From a virus: a DNA stretch of 64,000 nt. Below the pieces are notes generated by a model. That model was not told the DNA's origin. It did not search any database and was given only the letters and a program-made list of their open reading frames with translations. The stretch lies in the IMG/VR virus record IMGVR_UViG_3300028920_001457, positions 1 through 64,000 of that record, one strand, 5' to 3'. Both the position numbers and the translations under genes were made by a program. Shown here in pieces: positions 21,401 through 43,135 of the stretch. The stretch's first letter is position 1. Each line of letters begins with the position of its first letter.

Positions 21401-22434
21401 TTCCACTAAAGTTCTAAAAGACAGTTACAATAATACATACTATTACCGCACCTATCAAATAGACTTTAATAATTAAGTTAACAATTTTAATACGTTTCAT
21501 AATTTTATGGTTTTATAATGGTTTAAGTTCACTTCAAGCAAATCACATTTGTCGCGCCTTGCTTTCATTTCTGCGTTAATAATGGCCCGTTGTTGATTAT
21601 CTTCCATGAAAGATTCAACGCCGGGATCGGCCAATATCTCACAACTCAAACAGTCAATATTATCAGTTAATTGAGCTATTTTAGTCATCTTACCGTTTTT
21701 CAATTCATTATAGTTTTTATAAATGCCATAATGATAAGTAACTGTTTTCATATCTTTAATTTTTTGGTTAATTTACACCCGCATAGTTTTGTAAATACGG
21801 GCGCTATCATTATTTACGCGGACTTTAGACCGCCAAAAGACTCCAAAGAACGGCTAAAGAATAGTAAAAACAACAGCCAGGATGCACGCTAAAGCTAAAT
21901 ACAAATAAACTGCATATTTAACTACATTTAAAAATACTTTTATAACTTTCATAGTTTAATAAATTAATGGTTAATATTATAATTTACTCGCATACTTTAT
22001 TTCTTTTTCAAGTCTTAATAGTGTACGTTCATGCACAAGCCTACATTCAAGATTTGATTCCCAACCCTCTTTCAAGGTAGCCCAATAACTTATCCCGTCG
22101 TCATCTTCCTTATGAATTTCAACAAGCCTGTCAGAATACTTACCCATTAATCTTTGTATTGTCCTCATCTCTTTATTTTTTAGTTAATATTAAAACACGC
22201 TAAATTAATTATAAAGTGCTATTTAATATCAAATAATTGTTGTAATTCTGGAATTAATCCAGATTCGTCCCCCCATTGGTTAGTCCTGCTATCTTTAAAC
22301 ATCCTGCAGCCTAATATAATCGGGGTTAAGTCTTTATATTTTAGTGCATGATATACATAGCTCGCTAATGTCCCGGCTTGGTTGCGTGTAAAACCTAATG
22401 TCATAATTTTGGTACAGATTTCTACTAGTGTCAT
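18482..22434 (-). other. Early-region cluster of small hypothetical ORFs with AT-rich spacers
   Basis: Many 60-140 aa ORFs, typical of a host-takeover region. Confidence 0.65.
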
Positions 22435-29277: not shown

Positions 29278-29356
29278 AGCGGTGGAGTGAAACGGATAAA
29301 TAAATCATTCGAGTCTCATAATCTCGAGATAGTGGGTTCAACTCCCACGACCGCAA
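29278..29356 (+). tRNA. tRNA-Met(CAT), initiator-like
   Basis: Anticodon loop CTCATAA, T arm GTGGG-TTCAACT-CCCAC, 1:72 mismatch. Confidence 0.8.
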
Positions 29357-34223: not shown

Positions 34224-34943
34224 ATGCCAAAATCAAAGACAAAAGACTGCCAGGGGATAAGTCTTAACAAAAGACGCAACAGGTGGGAGGTTACTATTAT
34301 CTATAAAAGGAAGCGCTATTATTTGGGTTCTTATCACAACAAAAAGATTGCACGGGCTGTATGGGAGTCCAAGAGAGATGAATTTTATGGGACAGAATCA
34401 GTACTCGACTTGCGTGGCGAGGTTTGGATTAAAATGGATAAACATAAGGGGGAATATTATGTTAGCAATAAGGGGCGAGTAAAAAACCTAAATTTTAAGG
34501 GCATGGGCTACGAAAGATTGTGTGGTATCATACCTTCGCATGGCTATAATCAAGTAAAGATAAATAGGGAGAGTTATTCTATACATCGGTTAGTTTTACA
34601 ATATTTTAAGGGAGAATCCGACCTTCCGGTTAATCACAAGGACGGAAATGGAACAAATAATATTTTAGAAAACCTAGAGTATGTTAGTCAGCGGATTAAT
34701 GGTTGCCATGGTTATTTTGTTGTGAACAAAAGAAATGTCCTAACGGGGGCACATTGGGATAAGTGGAATAATAGTTGGCGGTCTGAAATAAACATTAATG
34801 GTAGATTGGTATATTTAGGGTCTTTTAATACATCCATAGAGGCATGCGATAGATACTTACGGGCATTATTGGATTATGGCCTTCAGGATGATTATGATTA
34901 TATTGTCGAAATGATTGGACATAAACCCCATGTCGGAAATTAG
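34224..34943 (+). CDS. NUMOD4/HNH/AP2 homing endonuclease
   Basis: YYVSNKGRVK, IHRLV, VNHKDG...N...NLE, two AP2-like YLGS domains. Confidence 0.9.
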   Translation: MPKSKTKDCQGISLNKRRNRWEVTIIYKRKRYYLGSYHNKKIARAVWESKRDEFYGTESVLDLRGEVWIKMDKHKGEYYVSNKGRVKNLNFKGMGYERLCGIIPSHGYNQVKINRESYSIHRLVLQYFKGESDLPVNHKDGNGTNNILENLEYVSQRINGCHGYFVVNKRNVLTGAHWDKWNNSWRSEININGRLVYLGSFNTSIEACDRYLRALLDYGLQDDYDYIVEMIGHKPHVGN

Positions 34944-36400: not shown

Positions 36401-38155
36401 ATGAATACTTTAAGGTTATTCAATGCGGTAATCGCAAAAGAATCTACAGAAAAACCCTTCGTTTCAGAAGAGGGATTTATCATTGAATCAAATGCTCTTT
36501 GGGCAAAAAATAGGATATTGGAATTCTATCTCAAGGAAAAGTTAAGTGGTAACGATCTTAACAAAACATTTCACAAATCATGGGCTAAAATTAAAAACAG
36601 CTCTCGGTTTGAATTGTTTGTTGAGCAGATATTTCATTATATTTCTACATACGGAAGTGATTTTCAGGACGAAATATATATTCCCGATGAAGTATTAAAT
36701 GTACCTGACGTAAAGTTGTCATACAAGGTTGTCCGTGCATATTCCAAGGAGGAAATGACGGATAAGTGTTTATCACTATTAAAATCAGGTATAGCATTAA
36801 AGGAGGAAACAATTAATGAGGTGTTATCGGTGCTTGTTGAAGAACTGGATTATTCCTTTACGGGAAATGAGAAAATCAGAAACAAAGAGGCTGTTATAAA
36901 AATAGCAGATATTTATGGCGTTCTGCCCAATGACACCATGGAGTTTTTCAGATATATTATATATCGGGCTACGGGGCAGTCTCTTCTTATTAAGAGCAAT
37001 GATTTGATAATGAAAATTAAAGAAGGGAATTATAATCCGTCGGTTCAGTTTAATAAATTCGGATTAGAAAAATTGGCAACGATATTTAATCGTTTTAAGC
37101 CATTATTCTTGGCATTTAAACCCAAGTGCGGAAAAACGATCAATAAAATTGCGAAGTTGTCTAAAAAGTTTCATAAACCTCTCGTTGTCAACCCCCTTAA
37201 TACCGCAACAAGTGAGCTGATGGGGGATGATGATAGACATTGGTTGGATAATGCTACGCCGTACGCTTTATTTAAAGTATTATCGGCATGTTATACGAGA
37301 GCGAGCGGCCAAGAGTCTTTCGTTTATCGGATTAGAAACGGGAAATCCTGGGTCAAGGAAAAGGAAACTATTTTGAGGGTGAACAAGTTAAATTTTGATT
37401 TCATTATAAAGTATCTGAAAGAAAGATATGATTTATCAGAAAAGAAATTCTTTTTGCCTGCTGATATAAAATATGCCCTTCCTACATCAGAAAAAATGTT
37501 TGTTGGCAATATTCCCACAGGAACGAGATTTTATGGCAGGAAGTTGGCGGTTGGGATATATTGGGAGGACGCATGGGGGGCAAGAGACCTCGATCTTTCG
37601 GGGTTGACGCTTTCAGGGCATAAGGTTGGTTGGAATGCAGAATATGATTATGGCGAAGGACAATTAATGTATTCTGGCGATATTACATCCGCCCCCAATG
37701 GTGCGGTAGAGTACCTGTATGCCAACAAAGGGCTTCGGGAATCGGTTTTAATAAAAAACAATGTTTATTCGGGAAGTAATGAATGTGATTATAAAATCGT
37801 TATTGGGTTGGGGGATAAGATTTCTGTGGATTATATGATGAACCCAAATAATCTTTTTATAGAAGTCAAATGTAAGTCCGTACAAAAACAGACCATATTG
37901 GGGATTCTTACTCCAAAGAAAATGGGGCAGTGCTTTGTATTGCTTAATTTTGGGGCGGGACATGTAAGGGTGTCGGGCAACAGTAAGATATCTAATATCG
38001 CCCTTAAGTCACTATATGAACAATGGAACAAACCGTTTTCATTTAATAAATTGATTAAATTATTGGGGGCGCAGATTGTTGAAAACAAAGAGGATGCAGA
38101 TTATGATTTCTCGTCTGATAATTTAGAAAAAGATTCTTTTATTAAGATATTTTAA
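36401..38155 (+). CDS. Large helical protein with C-terminal TerD-like domain
   Basis: GIYW...RDLDLSG...YSGDITSAPNGAVEYL is TerD-like; N-terminal LNKTFHKSW...EQIFHYISTYG helical region. Confidence 0.6.
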   Translation: MNTLRLFNAVIAKESTEKPFVSEEGFIIESNALWAKNRILEFYLKEKLSGNDLNKTFHKSWAKIKNSSRFELFVEQIFHYISTYGSDFQDEIYIPDEVLNVPDVKLSYKVVRAYSKEEMTDKCLSLLKSGIALKEETINEVLSVLVEELDYSFTGNEKIRNKEAVIKIADIYGVLPNDTMEFFRYIIYRATGQSLLIKSNDLIMKIKEGNYNPSVQFNKFGLEKLATIFNRFKPLFLAFKPKCGKTINKIAKLSKKFHKPLVVNPLNTATSELMGDDDRHWLDNATPYALFKVLSACYTRASGQESFVYRIRNGKSWVKEKETILRVNKLNFDFIIKYLKERYDLSEKKFFLPADIKYALPTSEKMFVGNIPTGTRFYGRKLAVGIYWEDAWGARDLDLSGLTLSGHKVGWNAEYDYGEGQLMYSGDITSAPNGAVEYLYANKGLRESVLIKNNVYSGSNECDYKIVIGLGDKISVDYMMNPNNLFIEVKCKSVQKQTILGILTPKKMGQCFVLLNFGAGHVRVSGNSKISNIALKSLYEQWNKPFSFNKLIKLLGAQIVENKEDADYDFSSDNLEKDSFIKIF

Positions 38156-38156
38156 T

Positions 38157-38164
38157 TATCTTTG
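38157..38164 (+). promoter_or_regulatory. Bacteroidota-type -7 promoter element of tRNA operon 1
   Basis: TATCTTTG four nt before the leader ATG (leaderless-like). Confidence 0.65.
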
Positions 38165-38168
38165 CACC

Positions 38169-38231
38169 ATGATTAGAATACAGCATATAGAGCAACCGCA
38201 ACAGCCAAGAGCCGATATTGGGTCTGGATAG
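38169..38231 (+). CDS. Attenuator leader peptide 1 (MIRIQHIEQPQQPRADIGSG)
   Basis: Codons ATA,CAG,CAT,ATA,GAG,CAA,CCG,CAA,CAG,CCA match downstream Ile(TAT), Gln, His, Glu, Pro tRNAs. Confidence 0.85.
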   Translation: MIRIQHIEQPQQPRADIGSG

Positions 38232-38256
38232 GTGTTCTATGTGTTTATAATACAGA

Positions 38257-38287
38257 GCCTTCTGGACTATTTCAGAGGGCTTTTTTT
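38257..38287 (+). terminator. Attenuator terminator 1
   Basis: GCCTTCTGGA-CTAT-TTCAGAGGGC plus T7, just before the first tRNA. Confidence 0.85.
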
Positions 38288-38291
38288 ATTT

Positions 38292-38364
38292 CGGAAGTAT
38301 GGTGTAATCAGGTAGCATACGTGCCTTGGGCGCACGGGGAGTAGTTCGAATCTAATATTTCCGA
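38292..38364 (+). tRNA. tRNA-Pro(TGG)
   Basis: CGTGC-CTTGGGC-GCACG; acceptor CGGAAGT/ATTTCCG. Confidence 0.9.
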
Positions 38365-38370
38365 CAATAT

Positions 38371-38442
38371 TGGCACATAGGTTAATGGTAAGACCTCTCG
38401 GCTTATACCCCAGCAGTCCAAGTTCGATTCTTGGTGTGCCAA
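38371..38442 (+). tRNA. tRNA-Ile(TAT)
   Basis: Loop CTTATAC; acceptor TGGCACA/TGTGCCA; T loop TTCGATT. Confidence 0.8.
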
Positions 38443-38443
38443 C

Positions 38444-38518
38444 GGTGGTTATGGTGTAATGGCAACATAACTGTTTGTGGAGCAGTGGTTATCAGTTCGA
38501 GCCTGATTAATCACCCCA
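38444..38518 (+). tRNA. tRNA-His(GTG)
   Basis: G-1:C73, loop TTGTGGA, encoded CCA. Confidence 0.9.
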
Positions 38519-38519
38519 T

Positions 38520-38590
38520 GCTCGGTTCTTCTAACGGCAGGAAATCGGGTTTTCACCCCGGCAATAGCGGTTCAATTCCGCTACCGAGTA
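38520..38590 (+). tRNA. tRNA-Glu(TTC)
   Basis: TCGGG-TTTTCAC-CCCGG; T arm AGCGG-TTCAATT-CCGCT. Confidence 0.9.
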
Positions 38591-38596
38591 CGATAA

Positions 38597-38667
38597 TGCC
38601 TTGTGGTGTAATAGTAACACATAACACTTTGGATGTTATGTTTTCGGTGCGAATCCGAACAAGGCAT
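38597..38667 (+). tRNA. tRNA-Gln(TTG)
   Basis: TAACA-CTTTGGA-TGTTA; acceptor TGCCTTG/CAAGGCA. Confidence 0.9.
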
Positions 38668-38676
38668 CAAAATAAA

Positions 38677-38707
38677 TTTGGAAATTTAAAAATATGTATT
38701 ATCTTTG
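38677..38707 (+). promoter_or_regulatory. Bacteroidota-type promoter of tRNA operon 2
   Basis: TTTG (38677) then 19 nt then TATCTTTG (38700). Confidence 0.75.
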
Positions 38708-38726
38708 TACCAATAAAAAACAAAAA

Positions 38727-38801
38727 ATGCAGTTAGTCAGAAAGAATATGGTGAATATTGACCGCACAGGCGCAACCTTGCGAGGGGGTATTCCTATATG
38801 A
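38727..38801 (+). CDS. Attenuator leader peptide 2 (MQLVRKNMVNIDRTGATLRGGIPI)
   Basis: Core V-R-K-N-M-V-N-I-D-R-T-G-A-T covers all 10 amino acids of the 11 downstream tRNAs. Confidence 0.85.
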   Translation: MQLVRKNMVNIDRTGATLRGGIPI

Positions 38802-38822
38802 TTTCTGTAAGAAACAACAGGG

Positions 38823-38851
38823 ATGCCCTCAAGAGATTGGGGGCATTTTTT
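38823..38851 (+). terminator. Attenuator terminator 2
   Basis: ATGCCCTCAA-GAGA-TTGGGGGCAT plus T5. Confidence 0.85.
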
Positions 38852-38853
38852 AT

Positions 38854-38924
38854 TGGCTCATAGTTTAATAGTAGAACGCATCTCTGATACGGATGTAGCC
38901 TAAGTGCGATTCTTAGTGAGCCAA
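38854..38924 (+). tRNA. tRNA-Ile(GAT)
   Basis: CATCT-CTGATAC-GGATG; acceptor TGGCTCA/TGAGCCA. Confidence 0.85.
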
Positions 38925-38928
38925 CAAT

Positions 38929-39001
38929 AGCGGGTTGTGTAGAAATAGTATCTCGTCAGTCTCATAAGCTGAAGTTATGGGTGCAATCCCCATACCCGCT
39001 A
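38929..39001 (+). tRNA. tRNA-Met(CAT)
   Basis: TCAGT-CTCATAA-GCTGA; acceptor AGCGGGT/ACCCGCT. Confidence 0.85.
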
Positions 39002-39005
39002 CAAT

Positions 39006-39077
39006 GGGAATATGGTGAAATGGGTATCACGATGGACTGTTAATCCTTCGTTATAGGTTCAAGTCCTATTGTTCCCG
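39006..39077 (+). tRNA. tRNA-Asn(GTT)
   Basis: Loop CTGTTAA; G73. Confidence 0.9.
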
Positions 39078-39081
39078 CAAA

Positions 39082-39153
39082 GTCCTTGTGGTGTAATGGA
39101 GAGCACAAGTGTCTTCTAAGCATTTAGTCAGGGTTCGACTCCTTGCGGGGACA
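39082..39153 (+). tRNA. tRNA-Arg(TCT)
   Basis: Loop CTTCTAA; T loop TTCGACT. Confidence 0.9.
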
Positions 39154-39159
39154 CTAAAT

Positions 39160-39234
39160 ACCCTTGTAGGCTCCTTGGTGGAGAACCAGATTGTCACTCT
39201 GGTAAAACAGACGGATCGTAACCGTTCAGGGGTG
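39160..39234 (+). tRNA. tRNA-Asp(GTC)
   Basis: CCAGA-TTGTCAC-TCTGG; G73; atypical T loop ATCGTAA. Confidence 0.8.
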
Positions 39235-39239
39235 CAAGC

Positions 39240-39312
39240 GGGTTGCAATGTACCAAGGCTGGCGAGAGACCCTTGCAAGGTTTTTGGCTCGGTTCGATTC
39301 CGAGGCGATCCA
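39240..39312 (+). tRNA. tRNA-Ala(TGC)
   Basis: Loop CTTGCAA; G3:U70 identity pair present. Confidence 0.9.
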
Positions 39313-39315
39313 CAA

Positions 39316-39387
39316 GCAGGATAGGTGTTGATGGTTGCATAAGAGCCTTCCAAGCTCAAGGAGTGAATTCGAATTTCACATCCTGCT
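39316..39387 (+). tRNA. tRNA-Gly(TCC)
   Basis: Loop CTTCCAA; acceptor GCAGGAT/ATCCTGC; U73. Confidence 0.9.
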
Positions 39388-39391
39388 CAAT

Positions 39392-39466
39392 GGGCGATTA
39401 GTTTAATGGACAGAATATATCGCTACGGACGATATGGTGAGGATTCGATTTCTTCATCGCCCACCA
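39392..39466 (+). tRNA. tRNA-Arg(ACG)
   Basis: TATCG-CTACGGA-CGATA; encoded CCA. Confidence 0.9.
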
Positions 39467-39468
39467 AT

Positions 39469-39540
39469 GACCCTATAATTTCAACAGTAGAATCCCATCC
39501 TTTTAAGATGGTTGTCTTGGGGCGGAACCAAGTGGGGTCA
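39469..39540 (+). tRNA. tRNA-Lys(TTT)
   Basis: CCATC-CTTTTAA-GATGG; atypical T loop GGCGGAA. Confidence 0.8.
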
Positions 39541-39544
39541 CAAA

Positions 39545-39616
39545 GGCAGGTTAGTTTAAGCGGCAAAACACGTGATTTGTAACCATGAGATACGGCTTCG
39601 ATCGCTGTACTTGCCT
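39545..39616 (+). tRNA. tRNA-Thr(TGT)
   Basis: Loop TTTGTAA; acceptor GGCAGGT/ACTTGCC. Confidence 0.85.
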
Positions 39617-39621
39617 CAAAT

Positions 39622-39694
39622 AGCCCGATAGTGTAGCGGTTAAGCACGGCACCCTTACAAGATGTCAGCCACAGTTCGAGTCTGTGTTGGGCTA
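39622..39694 (+). tRNA. tRNA-Val(TAC)
   Basis: Loop CTTACAA; T loop TTCGAGT. Confidence 0.85.
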
Positions 39695-39712
39695 CAAAAA
39701 AACATAAATATA

Positions 39713-39743
39713 TTTGTTTATTTAAAAATTATTATTAATTTTG
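39713..39743 (+). promoter_or_regulatory. Bacteroidota-type promoter of tRNA operon 3
   Basis: TTTG (39713) then 19 nt then TAATTTTG (39736). Confidence 0.75.
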
Positions 39744-39749
39744 CAGATT

Positions 39750-39812
39750 ATGAAAAATCTATGGTGTTCATATAGTTTATTTTCACTCTTGCTCTTGAGG
39801 CGAGGCGGATAA
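39750..39812 (+). CDS. Attenuator leader peptide 3 (MKNLWCSYSLFSLLLLRRGG)
   Basis: CTA,TGG,TGT,TCA,TAT,AGT,TTA,TTT,TCA,CTC,TTG: at least one codon for each of the 9 downstream tRNAs. Confidence 0.9.
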   Translation: MKNLWCSYSLFSLLLLRRGG

Positions 39813-39838
39813 ACTATATCTACCAAAGATATATTGAA

Positions 39839-39864
39839 GCCTCGCTTATAAAGCGGGGTTTTTT
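39839..39864 (+). terminator. Attenuator terminator 3
   Basis: GCCTCGCTT-ATA-AAGCGGGGT plus T5. Confidence 0.85.
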
Positions 39865-39869
39865 GTTAT

Positions 39870-39942
39870 GGGGAATTGACGTAAATGGCAACCGTATTGG
39901 GTTTAAGCCCCAAGTTTGAGAGTTCGAATCTCTTGTTCCCCA
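39870..39942 (+). tRNA. tRNA-Leu(TAA), short variable loop
   Basis: TTGGG-TTTAAGC-CCCAA; A73. Confidence 0.85.
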
Positions 39943-39945
39943 CAT

Positions 39946-40018
39946 GGTCGAGTGACGTAACAGGCAACCGTATCCGTCTCAAAAGCGGAGTTTATGGGTT
40001 CGAATCCCATCTTGACCA
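39946..40018 (+). tRNA. tRNA-Leu(CAA), short variable loop
   Basis: TCCGT-CTCAAAA-GCGGA; A73. Confidence 0.85.
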
Positions 40019-40022
40019 CAAA

Positions 40023-40095
40023 GCTCAGGTAGTAAATTGGCAAAGCAACTTGACTTAGGATCAAGGATTTGTGAGTTCGAGTCTCACCCTGAGTA
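40023..40095 (+). tRNA. tRNA-Leu(TAG), short variable loop
   Basis: CTTGA-CTTAGGA-TCAAG; A73. Confidence 0.85.
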
Positions 40096-40099
40096 CTAT

Positions 40100-40191
40100 G
40101 GATGGCTAAACCACAGTAGGTCTAAGTGGGACGGTCTTGAAAACCGTAGGTCGCTCAACACGGCGTGTAAGTTCGAGTCTTACGCCATCCG
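40100..40191 (+). tRNA. tRNA-Ser(TGA)
   Basis: ACGGT-CTTGAAA-ACCGT; long variable arm; G73. Confidence 0.9.
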
Positions 40192-40195
40192 CGAA

Positions 40196-40278
40196 GGGAC
40201 GGCTTGGCATTAGTGAGCCTAAGAGTCTGTAAAACTCCCGCTTCGGCTGTGGTGGTGCAAATCCATCTCGTCCCACCA
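40196..40278 (+). tRNA. tRNA-Tyr(GTA)
   Basis: Loop CTGTAAA; variable arm; encoded CCA. Confidence 0.9.
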
Positions 40279-40279
40279 A

Positions 40280-40362
40280 GGAGAGTAAATCATCAAGGCG
40301 ATGACTACGCCCGCTAAGCGATAGGTTCTGAAAGGAATGGGACTCGGGTTCTCTGCTCTCCG
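40280..40362 (+). tRNA. tRNA-Ser(GCT), divergent
   Basis: Acceptor GGAGAGT/GCTCTCC, loop CCGCTAA (C33), long variable arm, weak T arm. Confidence 0.65.
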
Positions 40363-40367
40363 CAAAC

Positions 40368-40437
40368 AGGGATACCCATTGGAGTGGTAAGCGGTCTCCA
40401 AAACCGTGATTTGAATGTTCGACCCGTTCTATCCCTG
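40368..40437 (+). tRNA. tRNA-Trp(CCA)
   Basis: GCGGT-CTCCAAA-ACCGT; G73. Confidence 0.85.
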
Positions 40438-40441
40438 CTAT

Positions 40442-40518
40442 GGAGAAGTAGCTGAGTCGGTTCAAGCGTCGGACTGAAAATCCGAAGTAGATGAGTTCAA
40501 TTCTCATATTCTCCACCA
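40442..40518 (+). tRNA. tRNA-Phe(GAA)
   Basis: TCGGA-CTGAAAA-TCCGA; encoded CCA. Confidence 0.9.
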
Positions 40519-40519
40519 A

Positions 40520-40586
40520 GACCCAATAAAAGCACAAAACGTGGTTTGCAAAACCATGGGGGACGGTGCGATTCCGTCTTGGGTCT
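40520..40586 (+). tRNA. tRNA-Cys(GCA), D-arm reduced
   Basis: GTGGT-TTGCAAA-ACCAT; U73; D region is an unpaired A-rich 14-mer. Confidence 0.75.
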
Positions 40587-40624
40587 CTAATATATTTCTT
40601 ACCTTTGCATAAAACAAGAATAGT

Positions 40625-43135
40625 ATGGGCAAGAAACAACCGCCAAAGGCAGAAAAGAAACTTTCCTTTGAAACAGACTTTGAGTTACAGGAAGAAACCC
40701 GCCTAAAGCTACGTCCCGAAGATATAGTAAAGATAAAAGAGGAAGCAGGCAAACTACCCGATGACTTTAATCCTTATGGGAACTATATGCCCGAAAAACT
40801 CAGATTTCTGGGCGACGAACCACCCCCAAACACCAAAAGATTTGTTGGAATAAATGTGGATGATGATGATCTGACACCGATTTATGTAAGCACACCCGCC
40901 CCCCCGCCGAAAGAATTAATAGATTATCACGACCTACCACCCACAGAACAATATTGGCGGCGTATGGAAGTACCCAAACGACTGCATAAATTAGAAGAGA
41001 GAGCCTTCCTTGCGCTATTTGAGGTAGAAAGAAGAAACAGGCAGGAAACAGTACAGGGCTATAGGATTTATCAGAAATATTGGGAAATATTAGAAGCAGA
41101 ACAGGATAAATATGCGGAAGAGATAGCATGGATAAAAAAGATGTGGTGGTACAGGACTAACGGCTATTGGTTCTATAATGATGGCGAACCCGCCTATTGT
41201 ACTGGTGAATATTTTGATTATCTTAACTTTTGGTATATAAAGGATGGTGAGACACATGTGGAATTCAGGGAAGAGGATCGGGTTATTTCTATTTTTTCAC
41301 ATTATCTAAGAACAACAACCGAGTCTTTCGCCAACATAAACCCCACCACGGGTAGGGCAATGAAAAATAAAGATGGCAAGTATGATATGGTGGATGTCGG
41401 TGCAAGAGTATTTTTCGGTGACATGAAACCGAAATTCAGGAGGTGTGGGGAAACGCAATGGGCGTGTCACGGGATATGGCTTGGTGCGAGTACGACACCC
41501 GCCGCTTATGGTACTATCATATCCATGGATGGTGAAAACGCACAAAAGCACTATTACAAAAAGCTAATACCCGCATGGAATAAATATCCTATGTTTCTCA
41601 AGCCAATATGGATGGGTACGAAACGTCCCACAAATATTAAGTTGATAGAACCACCCAATGTATTTAATCCCAATATGGAGGGATTGGGTTCTAATATTGA
41701 TTATACAGAAAGCTCCGGGGTGTCGAAGAATGATGGTGATACATTACATTTTTGTCTCTCAGACGAGGAGGGAAAAAGTAAGTCACCTATAGCCGAAAGG
41801 TGGAGTGTAAATAAGATAGCTATGTCAACGGGTGGTGGGTCTAACATCCTTAATAACGCTTATGCGTGGCATCCGAGTACCGTTGAGGATATTGGTGACG
41901 GTGCGCCAGAGTATTTTAAAATGTGGCAACTATCTAATTTTTATGAAAGGATACCCATACTTGGGCAGACACACTCGGGGTTGGCAAGGATTTTCATTCC
42001 CGCATATAAGAAACTCGAGGGTTTTATTGACAGGTGGGGTAAGTCGGTATCGGATACACCAACGAAACGACAGATAAAATACAGTCCACGAGCCAAATTT
42101 GCACTCACGGGCAAGGGTGCAAGGGAAACACTACAGGCAGTTCTTGATTCCTTGTTAGCCAAGGGGACACCCGAGGCACTTGAGGCATACAGGTCAAGGC
42201 GCAGAAAGTTCCCGATGAAGTCGGCAGATGCATGGTTGGGGAGTTCGGGTAATGTGGGTTTCAACCTTGAGATAATAGACAAGCGTATAGAGGAACTCAA
42301 TAGGATAAAGTCTTTTGGCAAGATGAATTATAAAACCGGGTATTTTTACAGGGAAAACAATCATCCACAGGGCGATGTGTTGTGGCGTACAGACCTCGAC
42401 AACCCCAAGTTTATCATGTCCAAGGACTTACCACAGGAATTAACCAACAGAAGGAGTGTGGTCGACTTTTACGATGGTCTCAGGCAACAGTGGAAGAAAT
42501 CATGGACACCAGTAGACGGATATAAATTCACCCTTGGGGTGGATATGTTCAGAAATCTATCGCCCGTAGAGGCAAAACAGGCATCTAAATTTGGGGGATT
42601 TACCAATAACTCCCGCCAGAGTAATGGTGGTATAGCTATTCTATGGGAATATGATTCAGAATATCCCGATAGTGGCAGGTGTGTATTGTCGTATAATTAT
42701 CGTCCATCGACACAAAAAGAGTTTATGGATGATGTTCTTATGGCGGCACAGTATTTCGGGGCAATGATATATCCCGAACAAAACGTAGAGCGGTTTATTG
42801 AGTATATGTTTGATGAGGGCTATGGCGGGTATGGGCTTTATGATATTGATTTGGTAACTGGTAATATAAAGAAACTACCAGGGCGATATACTACAAAAGA
42901 AAGCCTGCAAGAGATGTTCAGGGAATATAAGGACTATATAGAACGTAAGGGTGCGGAAGAAGAACACGATGATTTGCTAATGCAGATGAAAAACATACGT
43001 GGGGTAGAAGATGCTACACGTAATGACCTTTTCGTTGCTTTCGGTATGTGTCTTCTTGGAAGTAAGTCCCGTGTCAGGGAAATTATAAAGCGTGAAGACT
43101 TTGGTGAGGCAATAGCAATAGACGATATTTTTTAA
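40625..43135 (+). CDS. Terminase large subunit (crAss-like)
   Basis: Walker A-like KPKFRRCGET, Walker B-like LSDEEGK, nuclease LGVD, E.NV and D..VAFG motifs; sits before portal. Confidence 0.85.
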   Translation: MGKKQPPKAEKKLSFETDFELQEETRLKLRPEDIVKIKEEAGKLPDDFNPYGNYMPEKLRFLGDEPPPNTKRFVGINVDDDDLTPIYVSTPAPPPKELIDYHDLPPTEQYWRRMEVPKRLHKLEERAFLALFEVERRNRQETVQGYRIYQKYWEILEAEQDKYAEEIAWIKKMWWYRTNGYWFYNDGEPAYCTGEYFDYLNFWYIKDGETHVEFREEDRVISIFSHYLRTTTESFANINPTTGRAMKNKDGKYDMVDVGARVFFGDMKPKFRRCGETQWACHGIWLGASTTPAAYGTIISMDGENAQKHYYKKLIPAWNKYPMFLKPIWMGTKRPTNIKLIEPPNVFNPNMEGLGSNIDYTESSGVSKNDGDTLHFCLSDEEGKSKSPIAERWSVNKIAMSTGGGSNILNNAYAWHPSTVEDIGDGAPEYFKMWQLSNFYERIPILGQTHSGLARIFIPAYKKLEGFIDRWGKSVSDTPTKRQIKYSPRAKFALTGKGARETLQAVLDSLLAKGTPEALEAYRSRRRKFPMKSADAWLGSSGNVGFNLEIIDKRIEELNRIKSFGKMNYKTGYFYRENNHPQGDVLWRTDLDNPKFIMSKDLPQELTNRRSVVDFYDGLRQQWKKSWTPVDGYKFTLGVDMFRNLSPVEAKQASKFGGFTNNSRQSNGGIAILWEYDSEYPDSGRCVLSYNYRPSTQKEFMDDVLMAAQYFGAMIYPEQNVERFIEYMFDEGYGGYGLYDIDLVTGNIKKLPGRYTTKESLQEMFREYKDYIERKGAEEEHDDLLMQMKNIRGVEDATRNDLFVAFGMCLLGSKSRVREIIKREDFGEAIAIDDIF

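Follow-up and report, generated by a model that had tools for sequence, protein, structure and literature searches.

Leader-peptide attenuation has for fifty years been the model for the control of amino-acid biosynthesis. The leaders thrL (Thr and Ile), ilvL/ivbL (Ile, Leu and Val), trpL, hisL, and pheL each have a promoter-proximal short open reading frame (ORF) with regulatory codons, 1:2, 2:3, and 3:4 helices, an intrinsic terminator, and control by ribosome position. Here we describe three transfer RNA (tRNA) operons of an uncultured virus whose leaders are alike in all these respects, the control by ribosome position being proposed. The window that was analysed is a stretch of 64,000 nucleotides (nt), positions 1 to 64,000 of IMG/VR record IMGVR_UViG_3300028920_001457, a 77-kilobase (kb) record that is 77% complete. 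It carries 25 tRNA genes in three blocks on the + strand, between a 584-amino-acid ORF and the TerL gene. Each of the three operons is probably gated by a ribosome-mediated transcription attenuator of the trp/his type, in which the leader is a checklist of codons for the operon's own tRNAs. All coordinates below are positions in the window, and the leaders, their helices, the promoters, and the tRNA blocks are on the + strand.

The match between codons and tRNAs was first claimed, in the earlier note, for operon 2. Its leader ORF (38727-38801) has 24 codons and a TGA stop and is laid out as ATG CAG TTA, a 14-codon run, VRKNMVNIDRTGAT, a seven-codon tail, and TGA. Block 2 (38854-39695) encodes Ile-GAT, Met-CAT, Asn-GTT, Arg-TCT, Asp-GTC, Ala-TGC, Gly-TCC, Arg-ACG, Lys-TTT, Thr-TGT, and Val-TAC. 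The earlier note had stated that 14 consecutive codons sample all 10 amino acids of this 11-tRNA block, and comparison of the codons with the anticodons bears this out. Codons 4-17, the regulatory run for the 11 tRNAs, specify solely the 10 amino acids of block 2, all 10 are present, and every anticodon (11 of 11) has a cognate codon. With ten amino acids sampled, leader 2 does have more inputs than the thr or ilv leaders, as had also been claimed. Under strict wobble rules GTC, GGC, and ACC are unread by the U34 tRNAs and the strictly cognate run consists of codons 5-14 plus GCA; if U34 tRNAs read whole four-codon boxes, all 14 codons are cognate.

The same relation holds at the two neighbouring operons, each with its own codon set. 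In leader 1 (38169-38231) codons 4-13 (IQHIEQPQQP) are a 10-codon run read by block 1 only, and all five tRNAs of that block (38292-38668; Pro-TGG, Ile-TAT, His-GTG, Glu-TTC, and Gln-TTG) are covered; Ile is written ATA, the codon of Ile-TAT. In leader 3 (39750-39812) codons 4-16, LWCSYSLFSLLLL, are a 13-codon run read by block 3 only. This run begins with eight codons for eight different tRNAs and covers 9 of the 9 in the block (39870-40590; Leu-TAA, Leu-CAA, Leu-TAG, Ser-TGA, Tyr-GTA, Ser-GCT, Trp-CCA, Phe-GAA, and Cys-GCA). Leaders 1, 2, and 3 thus list 5, 10, and 6 amino acids and 5, 11, and 9 isoacceptors, respectively. The match reaches the level of isoacceptors, there being separate codons for both Arg tRNAs (AGA, CGC), both Ser tRNAs (TCA, AGT), the three Leu tRNAs (CTA, TTA, TTG), and Ile-TAT (ATA). 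Jointly the blocks cover all 20 amino acids, and Ile is the sole amino acid that is in two of them.

The matched runs start at codon 4 in all three leaders. When each leader was compared with each block, long runs were found on the diagonal only and the off-diagonal runs did not exceed five codons. A six-frame scan of the whole window (127,996 codon positions) gave 21 stretches of 14 codons that lie wholly within the block 2 set, and leader 2 alone among them covers all 11 tRNAs. The runs of leaders 1 and 3 are likewise each unique in the 64 kb. From the phage's own codon usage, the chance of such a run per start position is 2.4e-8 for leader 1, 4.6e-7 for leader 2, and 8.8e-10 for leader 3.

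The leader RNA of operon 2 can form three helices. Hairpin 1:2, the anti-antiterminator (38738-38807, -26.8 kcal/mol), places its 5' half over the regulatory codons, with region 2 as the 3' half. In the antiterminator 2:3 (38784-38830, -19.9 kcal/mol) positions 38784-38795 pair with 38819-38830. The intrinsic terminator 3:4 (38819-38853) has 14 pairs counting the closing A:U, a GAGA loop, and a U-run, with -17.9 kcal/mol on 38819-38850, and it ends 3 nt short of the first tRNA. The 12-base-pair helix that had been proposed for 2:3 is exact, with 12 pairs of which three are G:U. It would exclude the GAGA-loop terminator, as had also been proposed; 38819-38830 is the 5' arm of that terminator. 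Attenuator 1 (38157-38291) has hairpin 1:2 at 38182-38245, the antiterminator at 38221-38268, and the terminator at 38254-38283 followed by a U-run; in attenuator 3 (39736-39869) these are at 39757-39830, 39798-39847, and 39836-39862, again with a U-run. Compared with shuffled sequences the three leader RNAs fold far more stably (z-scores of -4.5 to -5.3), and the fold consists of the 1:2 hairpin with the matched codons and the terminator. Across the three leaders the energies are -25 to -27 kcal/mol for 1:2, -15 to -20 for 2:3, and -15 to -18 for 3:4. Hairpin 1:2 is therefore more stable than 2:3, which is about equal to 3:4, and this is the same ordering as in classical attenuators. A simple terminator scan detected the terminators of leaders 1 and 3 and not that of leader 2.

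Bacteroidota sigma-A promoters share the consensus TAnnTTTG, located at -12 to -5, and a TTTG near -33 (PMC7366714, PMC9723704). Predicted promoters of this type precede all three leaders, and each leader ORF begins 4-19 nt past a TAnnTTTG box. The promoter of operon 2 (38677-38707) has TTTG at 38677-38680 as the -33 element and TATCTTTG at 38700-38707 as the -7 box; the predicted start is at about 38712, giving a 15-nt A-rich 5' untranslated region. In operon 1 the -7 box is at 38157-38164 and the predicted start is the A of the ATG, so that the messenger RNA (mRNA) would be leaderless, and in operon 3 the box is at 39736-39743 and the predicted start is 2 nt ahead of the ATG. With 24 occurrences in the window where 3.9 would be expected, the motif TATCTTTG is enriched six-fold. 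In all the relatives described below, the spacing of the -7 box puts the start on the ATG or at most 3 nt away for leaders 1 and 3. Since these spacings between promoter and ATG recur, the leader ATGs are supported as real starts.

Related loci were collected in two ways. A profile of TerL homologues led to the metagenome contigs L021, L023, and L032 (TerL 73-78% identical), all of which have homologous tRNA arrays directly upstream of TerL, and DNA patterns led to L035, L036, and L039/L042 from IMG/VR. Leaders are kept in all six of these loci; leader 2 is conserved in L021, L023, and L035, and the relatives of leader 1 are in L023, L035, and L039. In L035 the leaders match their own tRNAs at 5 of 5 (leader 1), 11 of 11 (leader 2), and 8 of 8 (leader 3), and in L023 at 5 of 5, 9 of 11, and 8 of 8. 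In L021 leader 2 matches 11 of 11 if its translation begins at an in-frame TTG in the conserved position, leader 3 matches 9 of 9, and leader 1 would lie beyond the end of the contig. The order of codons is permuted among relatives (WC becomes CW, and SLFS becomes SFSL or SSFL), and the leader peptides show exchanges within the set (V/R/K/T/G for A/K/T/R). Such permuted, within-set changes are as expected from selection on codon membership rather than on the peptide. In addition, L023 and L035, both of which are without Leu-CAA, have one TTG in leader 3 and the four phages with Leu-CAA have two; this co-variation is a hint only and may reflect a single evolutionary event.

If the ORFs were untranslated and their composition a by-product of local sequence bias or of constraints on RNA structure, some of the above would still be expected: most block 3 codons begin with T and the region of leader 3 is rich in T, and parts of the ORFs overlap conserved helices. 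However, the match is specific to the frame as well as unique in the window, and the joint chance of three matches is far below 1e-15. Moreover, it is repeated three times with different sets, it is kept in relatives despite the changed codon order, and the ATGs are at predicted transcript starts. We therefore give almost no credence to coincidence.

The helices are conserved as well. In the relatives, pairing is kept in the terminated and antiterminated structures at 94.6% and 94.4% for leader 3 and at 92.5% and 85.9% for leader 2, compared with 27-55% for slid controls. For leader 2 in four phages, 92.6% of the cells are paired in hairpin 1:2, with four pairs changed on both sides, 91.7% are paired in helix 2:3, with zero changes on both sides, and 100% are paired in terminator 3:4. 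Compensatory changes, with both members of a pair altered, were found in helices 1:2 and 3:4 and, for leader 3, also in 2:3. Between the window and L023, L035, and L039 the sequence of the leader 1 terminator is entirely different, but a GC hairpin followed by a U-run is present in every case.

The effect of a ribosome on these structures was modelled with a mask that was moved along codon by codon and whose footprint extended from 15 nt 5' of the A-site codon to 11 nt past it. In the co-transcriptional version the transcripts were cut ahead of the 3' arm of the terminator, and in the equilibrium version the full-length RNA was folded. In the co-transcriptional model the 5' arm of the terminator is sequestered by region 2 in leader 1 for A-site codons 4-14 (P 0.85-0.92), and it is sequestered in leader 2 for codons 1-16 (P 0.70-0.86) and in leader 3 for codons 1-13 (P 0.61-0.76). 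With the ribosome on the tail or the stop the arm is released again (leaders 1 and 3, about 0.3; leader 2, 0.27-0.70). The state changes at codons 14/15 in leader 1, 16/17 in leader 2, and 13/14 in leader 3, and these boundaries coincide with the ends of the matched codon runs. In the equilibrium model the probability of the terminator is at most 0.18 at codons 8-15 of leader 2 and at most 0.14 at codons 5-12 of leader 3.

Alternatively, the short ORFs could be translated and influence how the precursor is processed or how stable it is, for example if they shielded its 5' end or set the time of cleavage by RNase P or RNase E; the hairpins would then serve as constitutive insulators between operons. 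The terminators of the three leaders stop 3-8 nt 5' of the first tRNA, so RNase P must cut there, and the sole terminator downstream of blocks 1 and 2 is that of the next attenuator; both facts would suit such a role. It would leave unexplained why a mutually exclusive 2:3 helix that overlaps the terminator arm is conserved and why the codons over which the switch operates are the matched ones. For this reason we consider a role in processing very improbable.

The earlier note had interpreted the region upstream of operon 2 as an attenuator, and the analysis of sequence and folding upholds this: the promoter, the short ORF, the 1:2, 2:3, and 3:4 helices, the terminator with its U-run, the codon match, and the placement of the stop are all present and conserved. 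The stop codon of the leader is placed such that a finishing ribosome covers region 2. From this arrangement we infer translation of the leader, its coupling to transcription, and a shortage of tRNA as the natural signal. Transcription would start from the Bacteroidota sigma-A promoter, and a ribosome would translate the leader close behind the polymerase. If all the listed codons are decoded promptly, the ribosome would reach the tail or the stop and cover region 2, the 3:4 terminator would form, and transcription would halt a few bases short of the tRNA block. With any one of the listed tRNAs in short supply, the ribosome would stall within the run and melt hairpin 1:2; region 2 would then pair with region 3, the terminator would be blocked, and the whole tRNA block would be transcribed. 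The new tRNAs would relieve the stall and the attenuator would close, which would amount to negative feedback. The likely use of such a switch would be to supply tRNAs only when the host pool fails, be it through host anticodon nucleases, host shut-off, or a mismatch in codon usage.

Attenuation of the trp/his type senses charged tRNA, and a missing tRNA and an uncharged one are alike to it. The same attenuators could therefore respond in nature to amino-acid starvation or to general translation stress, and the tRNA blocks would then be a general stress response like the trn array of Anabaena, which is induced by translation inhibitors (PMC8421152, PMC10272220). However, extra tRNA is useless when amino acids limit. 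A general stress sensor would also have no need to list isoacceptors separately (two Arg, two Ser, three Leu, and Ile-ATA) or to split the 20 amino acids among leaders exactly as the operons do, and the Anabaena array is under a protein repressor, TrcR, and not under a leader. Starvation or general stress as the input thus seems improbable to us. A shortage of tRNA is indicated as the signal because every isoacceptor is listed and extra tRNA cannot cure amino-acid starvation, and since the output is tRNA, loss of the tRNAs themselves is the likelier physiological signal. It has been proposed that phages use their tRNAs to make up for host tRNAs depleted by anticodon nucleases (PMC10264068). 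We lean, with some reserve, towards the view that the three leaders are tRNA-supply sensors of an undescribed class, in which the leader of an operon is decodable by exactly its own isoacceptors, and the loss of one host tRNA, for example to an anticodon-nuclease defence, would call up a self-limiting replacement set.

The tRNA calls on which the codon match depends came from more than one method. In block 2 ARAGORN at default settings called Ile-GAT, Asn, Arg-TCT, Asp, Ala, Arg-ACG, Thr, and Val, and Rfam added Met-CAT (38930-39000) and Gly-TCC (39316-39387). Lys-TTT (39469-39541), which has an atypical T-loop, GGCGGAA, was called by ARAGORN at a lowered threshold only. Ser-GCT (40280-40363) in block 3 is atypical with a bulged anticodon stem, and its lowered-threshold ARAGORN call has an anomalous four-base anticodon. 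Cys-GCA (about 40520-40590) has a degenerate D-arm and no ARAGORN call in the window; its position and anticodon were read from the sequence. In the homologues of these three tRNAs in related phages the anticodon loops are conserved, there are compensatory stem changes for Lys and Cys, and L023 has a canonical Lys tRNA at the position equivalent to the atypical one. The partition of the tRNAs partly tracks the codon table: block 3 has the T-first codons and the remaining Leu and Ser boxes, block 2 has the A- and G-first codons (minus Glu and ATA) together with CGN, and block 1 has Pro, His, Gln, Glu, and ATA. Far from the array, at 29278-29356 (+), there is a solitary borderline match to a tRNA (29.4 bits against a cut-off of 29) with no ARAGORN call.

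Several observations weigh against the interpretation of these leaders as attenuators that read their own tRNAs. Tight coupling of transcription and translation in Bacteroidota hosts is an assumption. In the mask model only the co-transcriptional version gives a switch for leader 1; in equilibrium folding of the full-length RNA its terminator is never released. In leader 2 the codons GTC, GGC, and ACC need four-box decoding by U34 tRNAs, and the three atypical tRNAs (Lys, Ser-GCT, and Cys) may be poorly functional. A higher number of regulatory codons reportedly gave greater sensitivity in an attenuator-modelling study. Many tRNAs have one codon each in their leader, and the response to a partial or mild shortage may be weak. 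Attenuator modelling connects the regulatory codons with sensitivity (PMC1183508). The proposed mechanism depends on leaderless initiation, and in Bacteroidota just 3.7-5.5% of mRNAs are leaderless (PMC7366714, PMC9723704). Among the relatives, leader 2 of L023 has a Ser codon inside its run and covers only 9 of 11 tRNAs. Because the covariation comes from only four to five sequences and the window itself served to derive the structures, it lends support short of proof. Finally, L039 (4560-5000, -) and L042 (6660-7110, -) represent a deletion variant in which leader 1 now precedes Trp, Phe, and Cys. Here a fusion of tRNA-Pro (5' part) with tRNA-Trp (body) comes directly after leader 1 and its terminator, with Phe and Cys behind it; the deletion has removed attenuators 2 and 3 together with about 20 tRNAs, and leader 1 is unmatched to what follows.

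The array is flanked upstream by the 584-amino-acid ORF (36401-38155), which gave zero matches in PHROGs and Pfam, and downstream by the large terminase gene TerL (40625-43135; PHROG terminase, E 2e-46). Further upstream of the tRNA region is an HNH endonuclease gene at 34224-34943 (+) (PHROG 99, E 9e-33), and a type-P3 twister ribozyme is at 21760-21840 (-), with 59 bits against a gathering score of 39.9. In L021 an RtcB tRNA-ligase gene (519-1688; Pfam PF01139, E 5.6e-115) with its own TATCTTTG promoter lies between block 1 and attenuator 2, a context in keeping with the proposed control; a search of the 77-kb record to which the window belongs, 77% complete as noted above, gave no RtcB. Genes within the arrays of two other relatives include, in block 2 of L032 (571-1023), a 151-amino-acid ORF with HNH-like Cys/His motifs by eye that is an endonuclease candidate, and, inside block 3 of L035 (5315-5710), a PD-(D/E)XK endonuclease gene (Pfam E 4e-22) with its own promoter.

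DNA near-identical to that of this phage was found in one marine-sediment run and related DNA in many salt-marsh runs, four of which, all DNA runs, gave just short, broken contigs from related strains. None of the public sequencing runs searched was an RNA run carrying the locus. Other loci that were reached by way of TerL or the 584-amino-acid protein in IMG/VR (L001-L003, L013, and L014) have no tRNA arrays beside these genes, L015 has an unrelated tRNA array in which no leader ORF was seen on reading, and the nearest GenBank phage, the crAss-like cr111_1 (L012), has some tRNAs in common and a different array. Of the DNA patterns, the first for leader 2 had zero matches and a looser one matched five loci, none with tRNAs and probably by chance; a loose pattern for leader 3 gave 92 matches, nearly all of them chance, and a 17-mer from leader 1 gave seven, five by chance.

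If the proposal is true, it would give a direct answer to the question of when phages express their tRNA arrays, and it would tie these arrays mechanistically to host tRNA depletion and defence, in a conflict of phage and host over the tRNA pool. It would mean that tRNA genes are regulated by their own decoding performance, and it would make available small natural elements that report how well chosen codons can be decoded. The sequence rule that the codon set of the leader equals the anticodon set downstream is usable to annotate tRNA operons in uncultured phages.

The three leaders belong to no Rfam leader family. Leaders 1 and 2 had no matches to Rfam leader families, and leader 3 had sub-threshold ones, to Trp_leader (RF00513) at 39772-39866 with 30 bits against a cut-off of 41 and to Phe_leader (RF01859) with 25 bits against 55; L021 and L032 were similar. 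T-box riboswitches also sense the state of a specific tRNA through a terminator/antiterminator switch upstream of translation-related genes. However, a T-box binds the tRNA directly via one specifier codon without translation, whereas here there is an ORF from ATG to stop at the transcript start, and no T-box match was found by Rfam at E up to 1 in 38100-40700. The trn operon of Anabaena sp. PCC 7120 is likewise a supernumerary array, of 26 tRNAs, that is silent until translational stress, and it is the only tRNA array we found in the literature to be silent until translation is impaired. It differs in having the RHH repressor TrcR at its promoter, in being one operon on a bacterial plasmid, and in having no codon matching, and the papers on it mention no leader peptide, attenuator, or terminator (PMC8421152, PMC10272220). 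The leaderless polycysteine short ORFs of mycobacteria resemble the leaders described here in that codons of a leaderless short ORF sense supply and control a downstream operon, and differ in having a single amino-acid input, protein-coding targets, and a host of another phylum (bioRxiv 10.1101/834739).

Searches of the literature turned up no paper in which tRNA genes are controlled by a leader peptide. What is new at this locus is that textbook attenuation apparently controls tRNA genes, with the leader as a checklist, isoacceptor by isoacceptor. The enterobacterial leaders with which we began differ from these in three ways. Their output is enzymes, whereas here it is tRNA genes and the system is encoded by a phage. 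They contain tandem repeats of codons for one to three amino acids, whereas these leaders list 5, 10, and 6 amino acids with mostly one or two codons each. Finally, two of the leaders described here are predicted to lie on leaderless or near-leaderless mRNAs transcribed from promoters of the Bacteroidota type.

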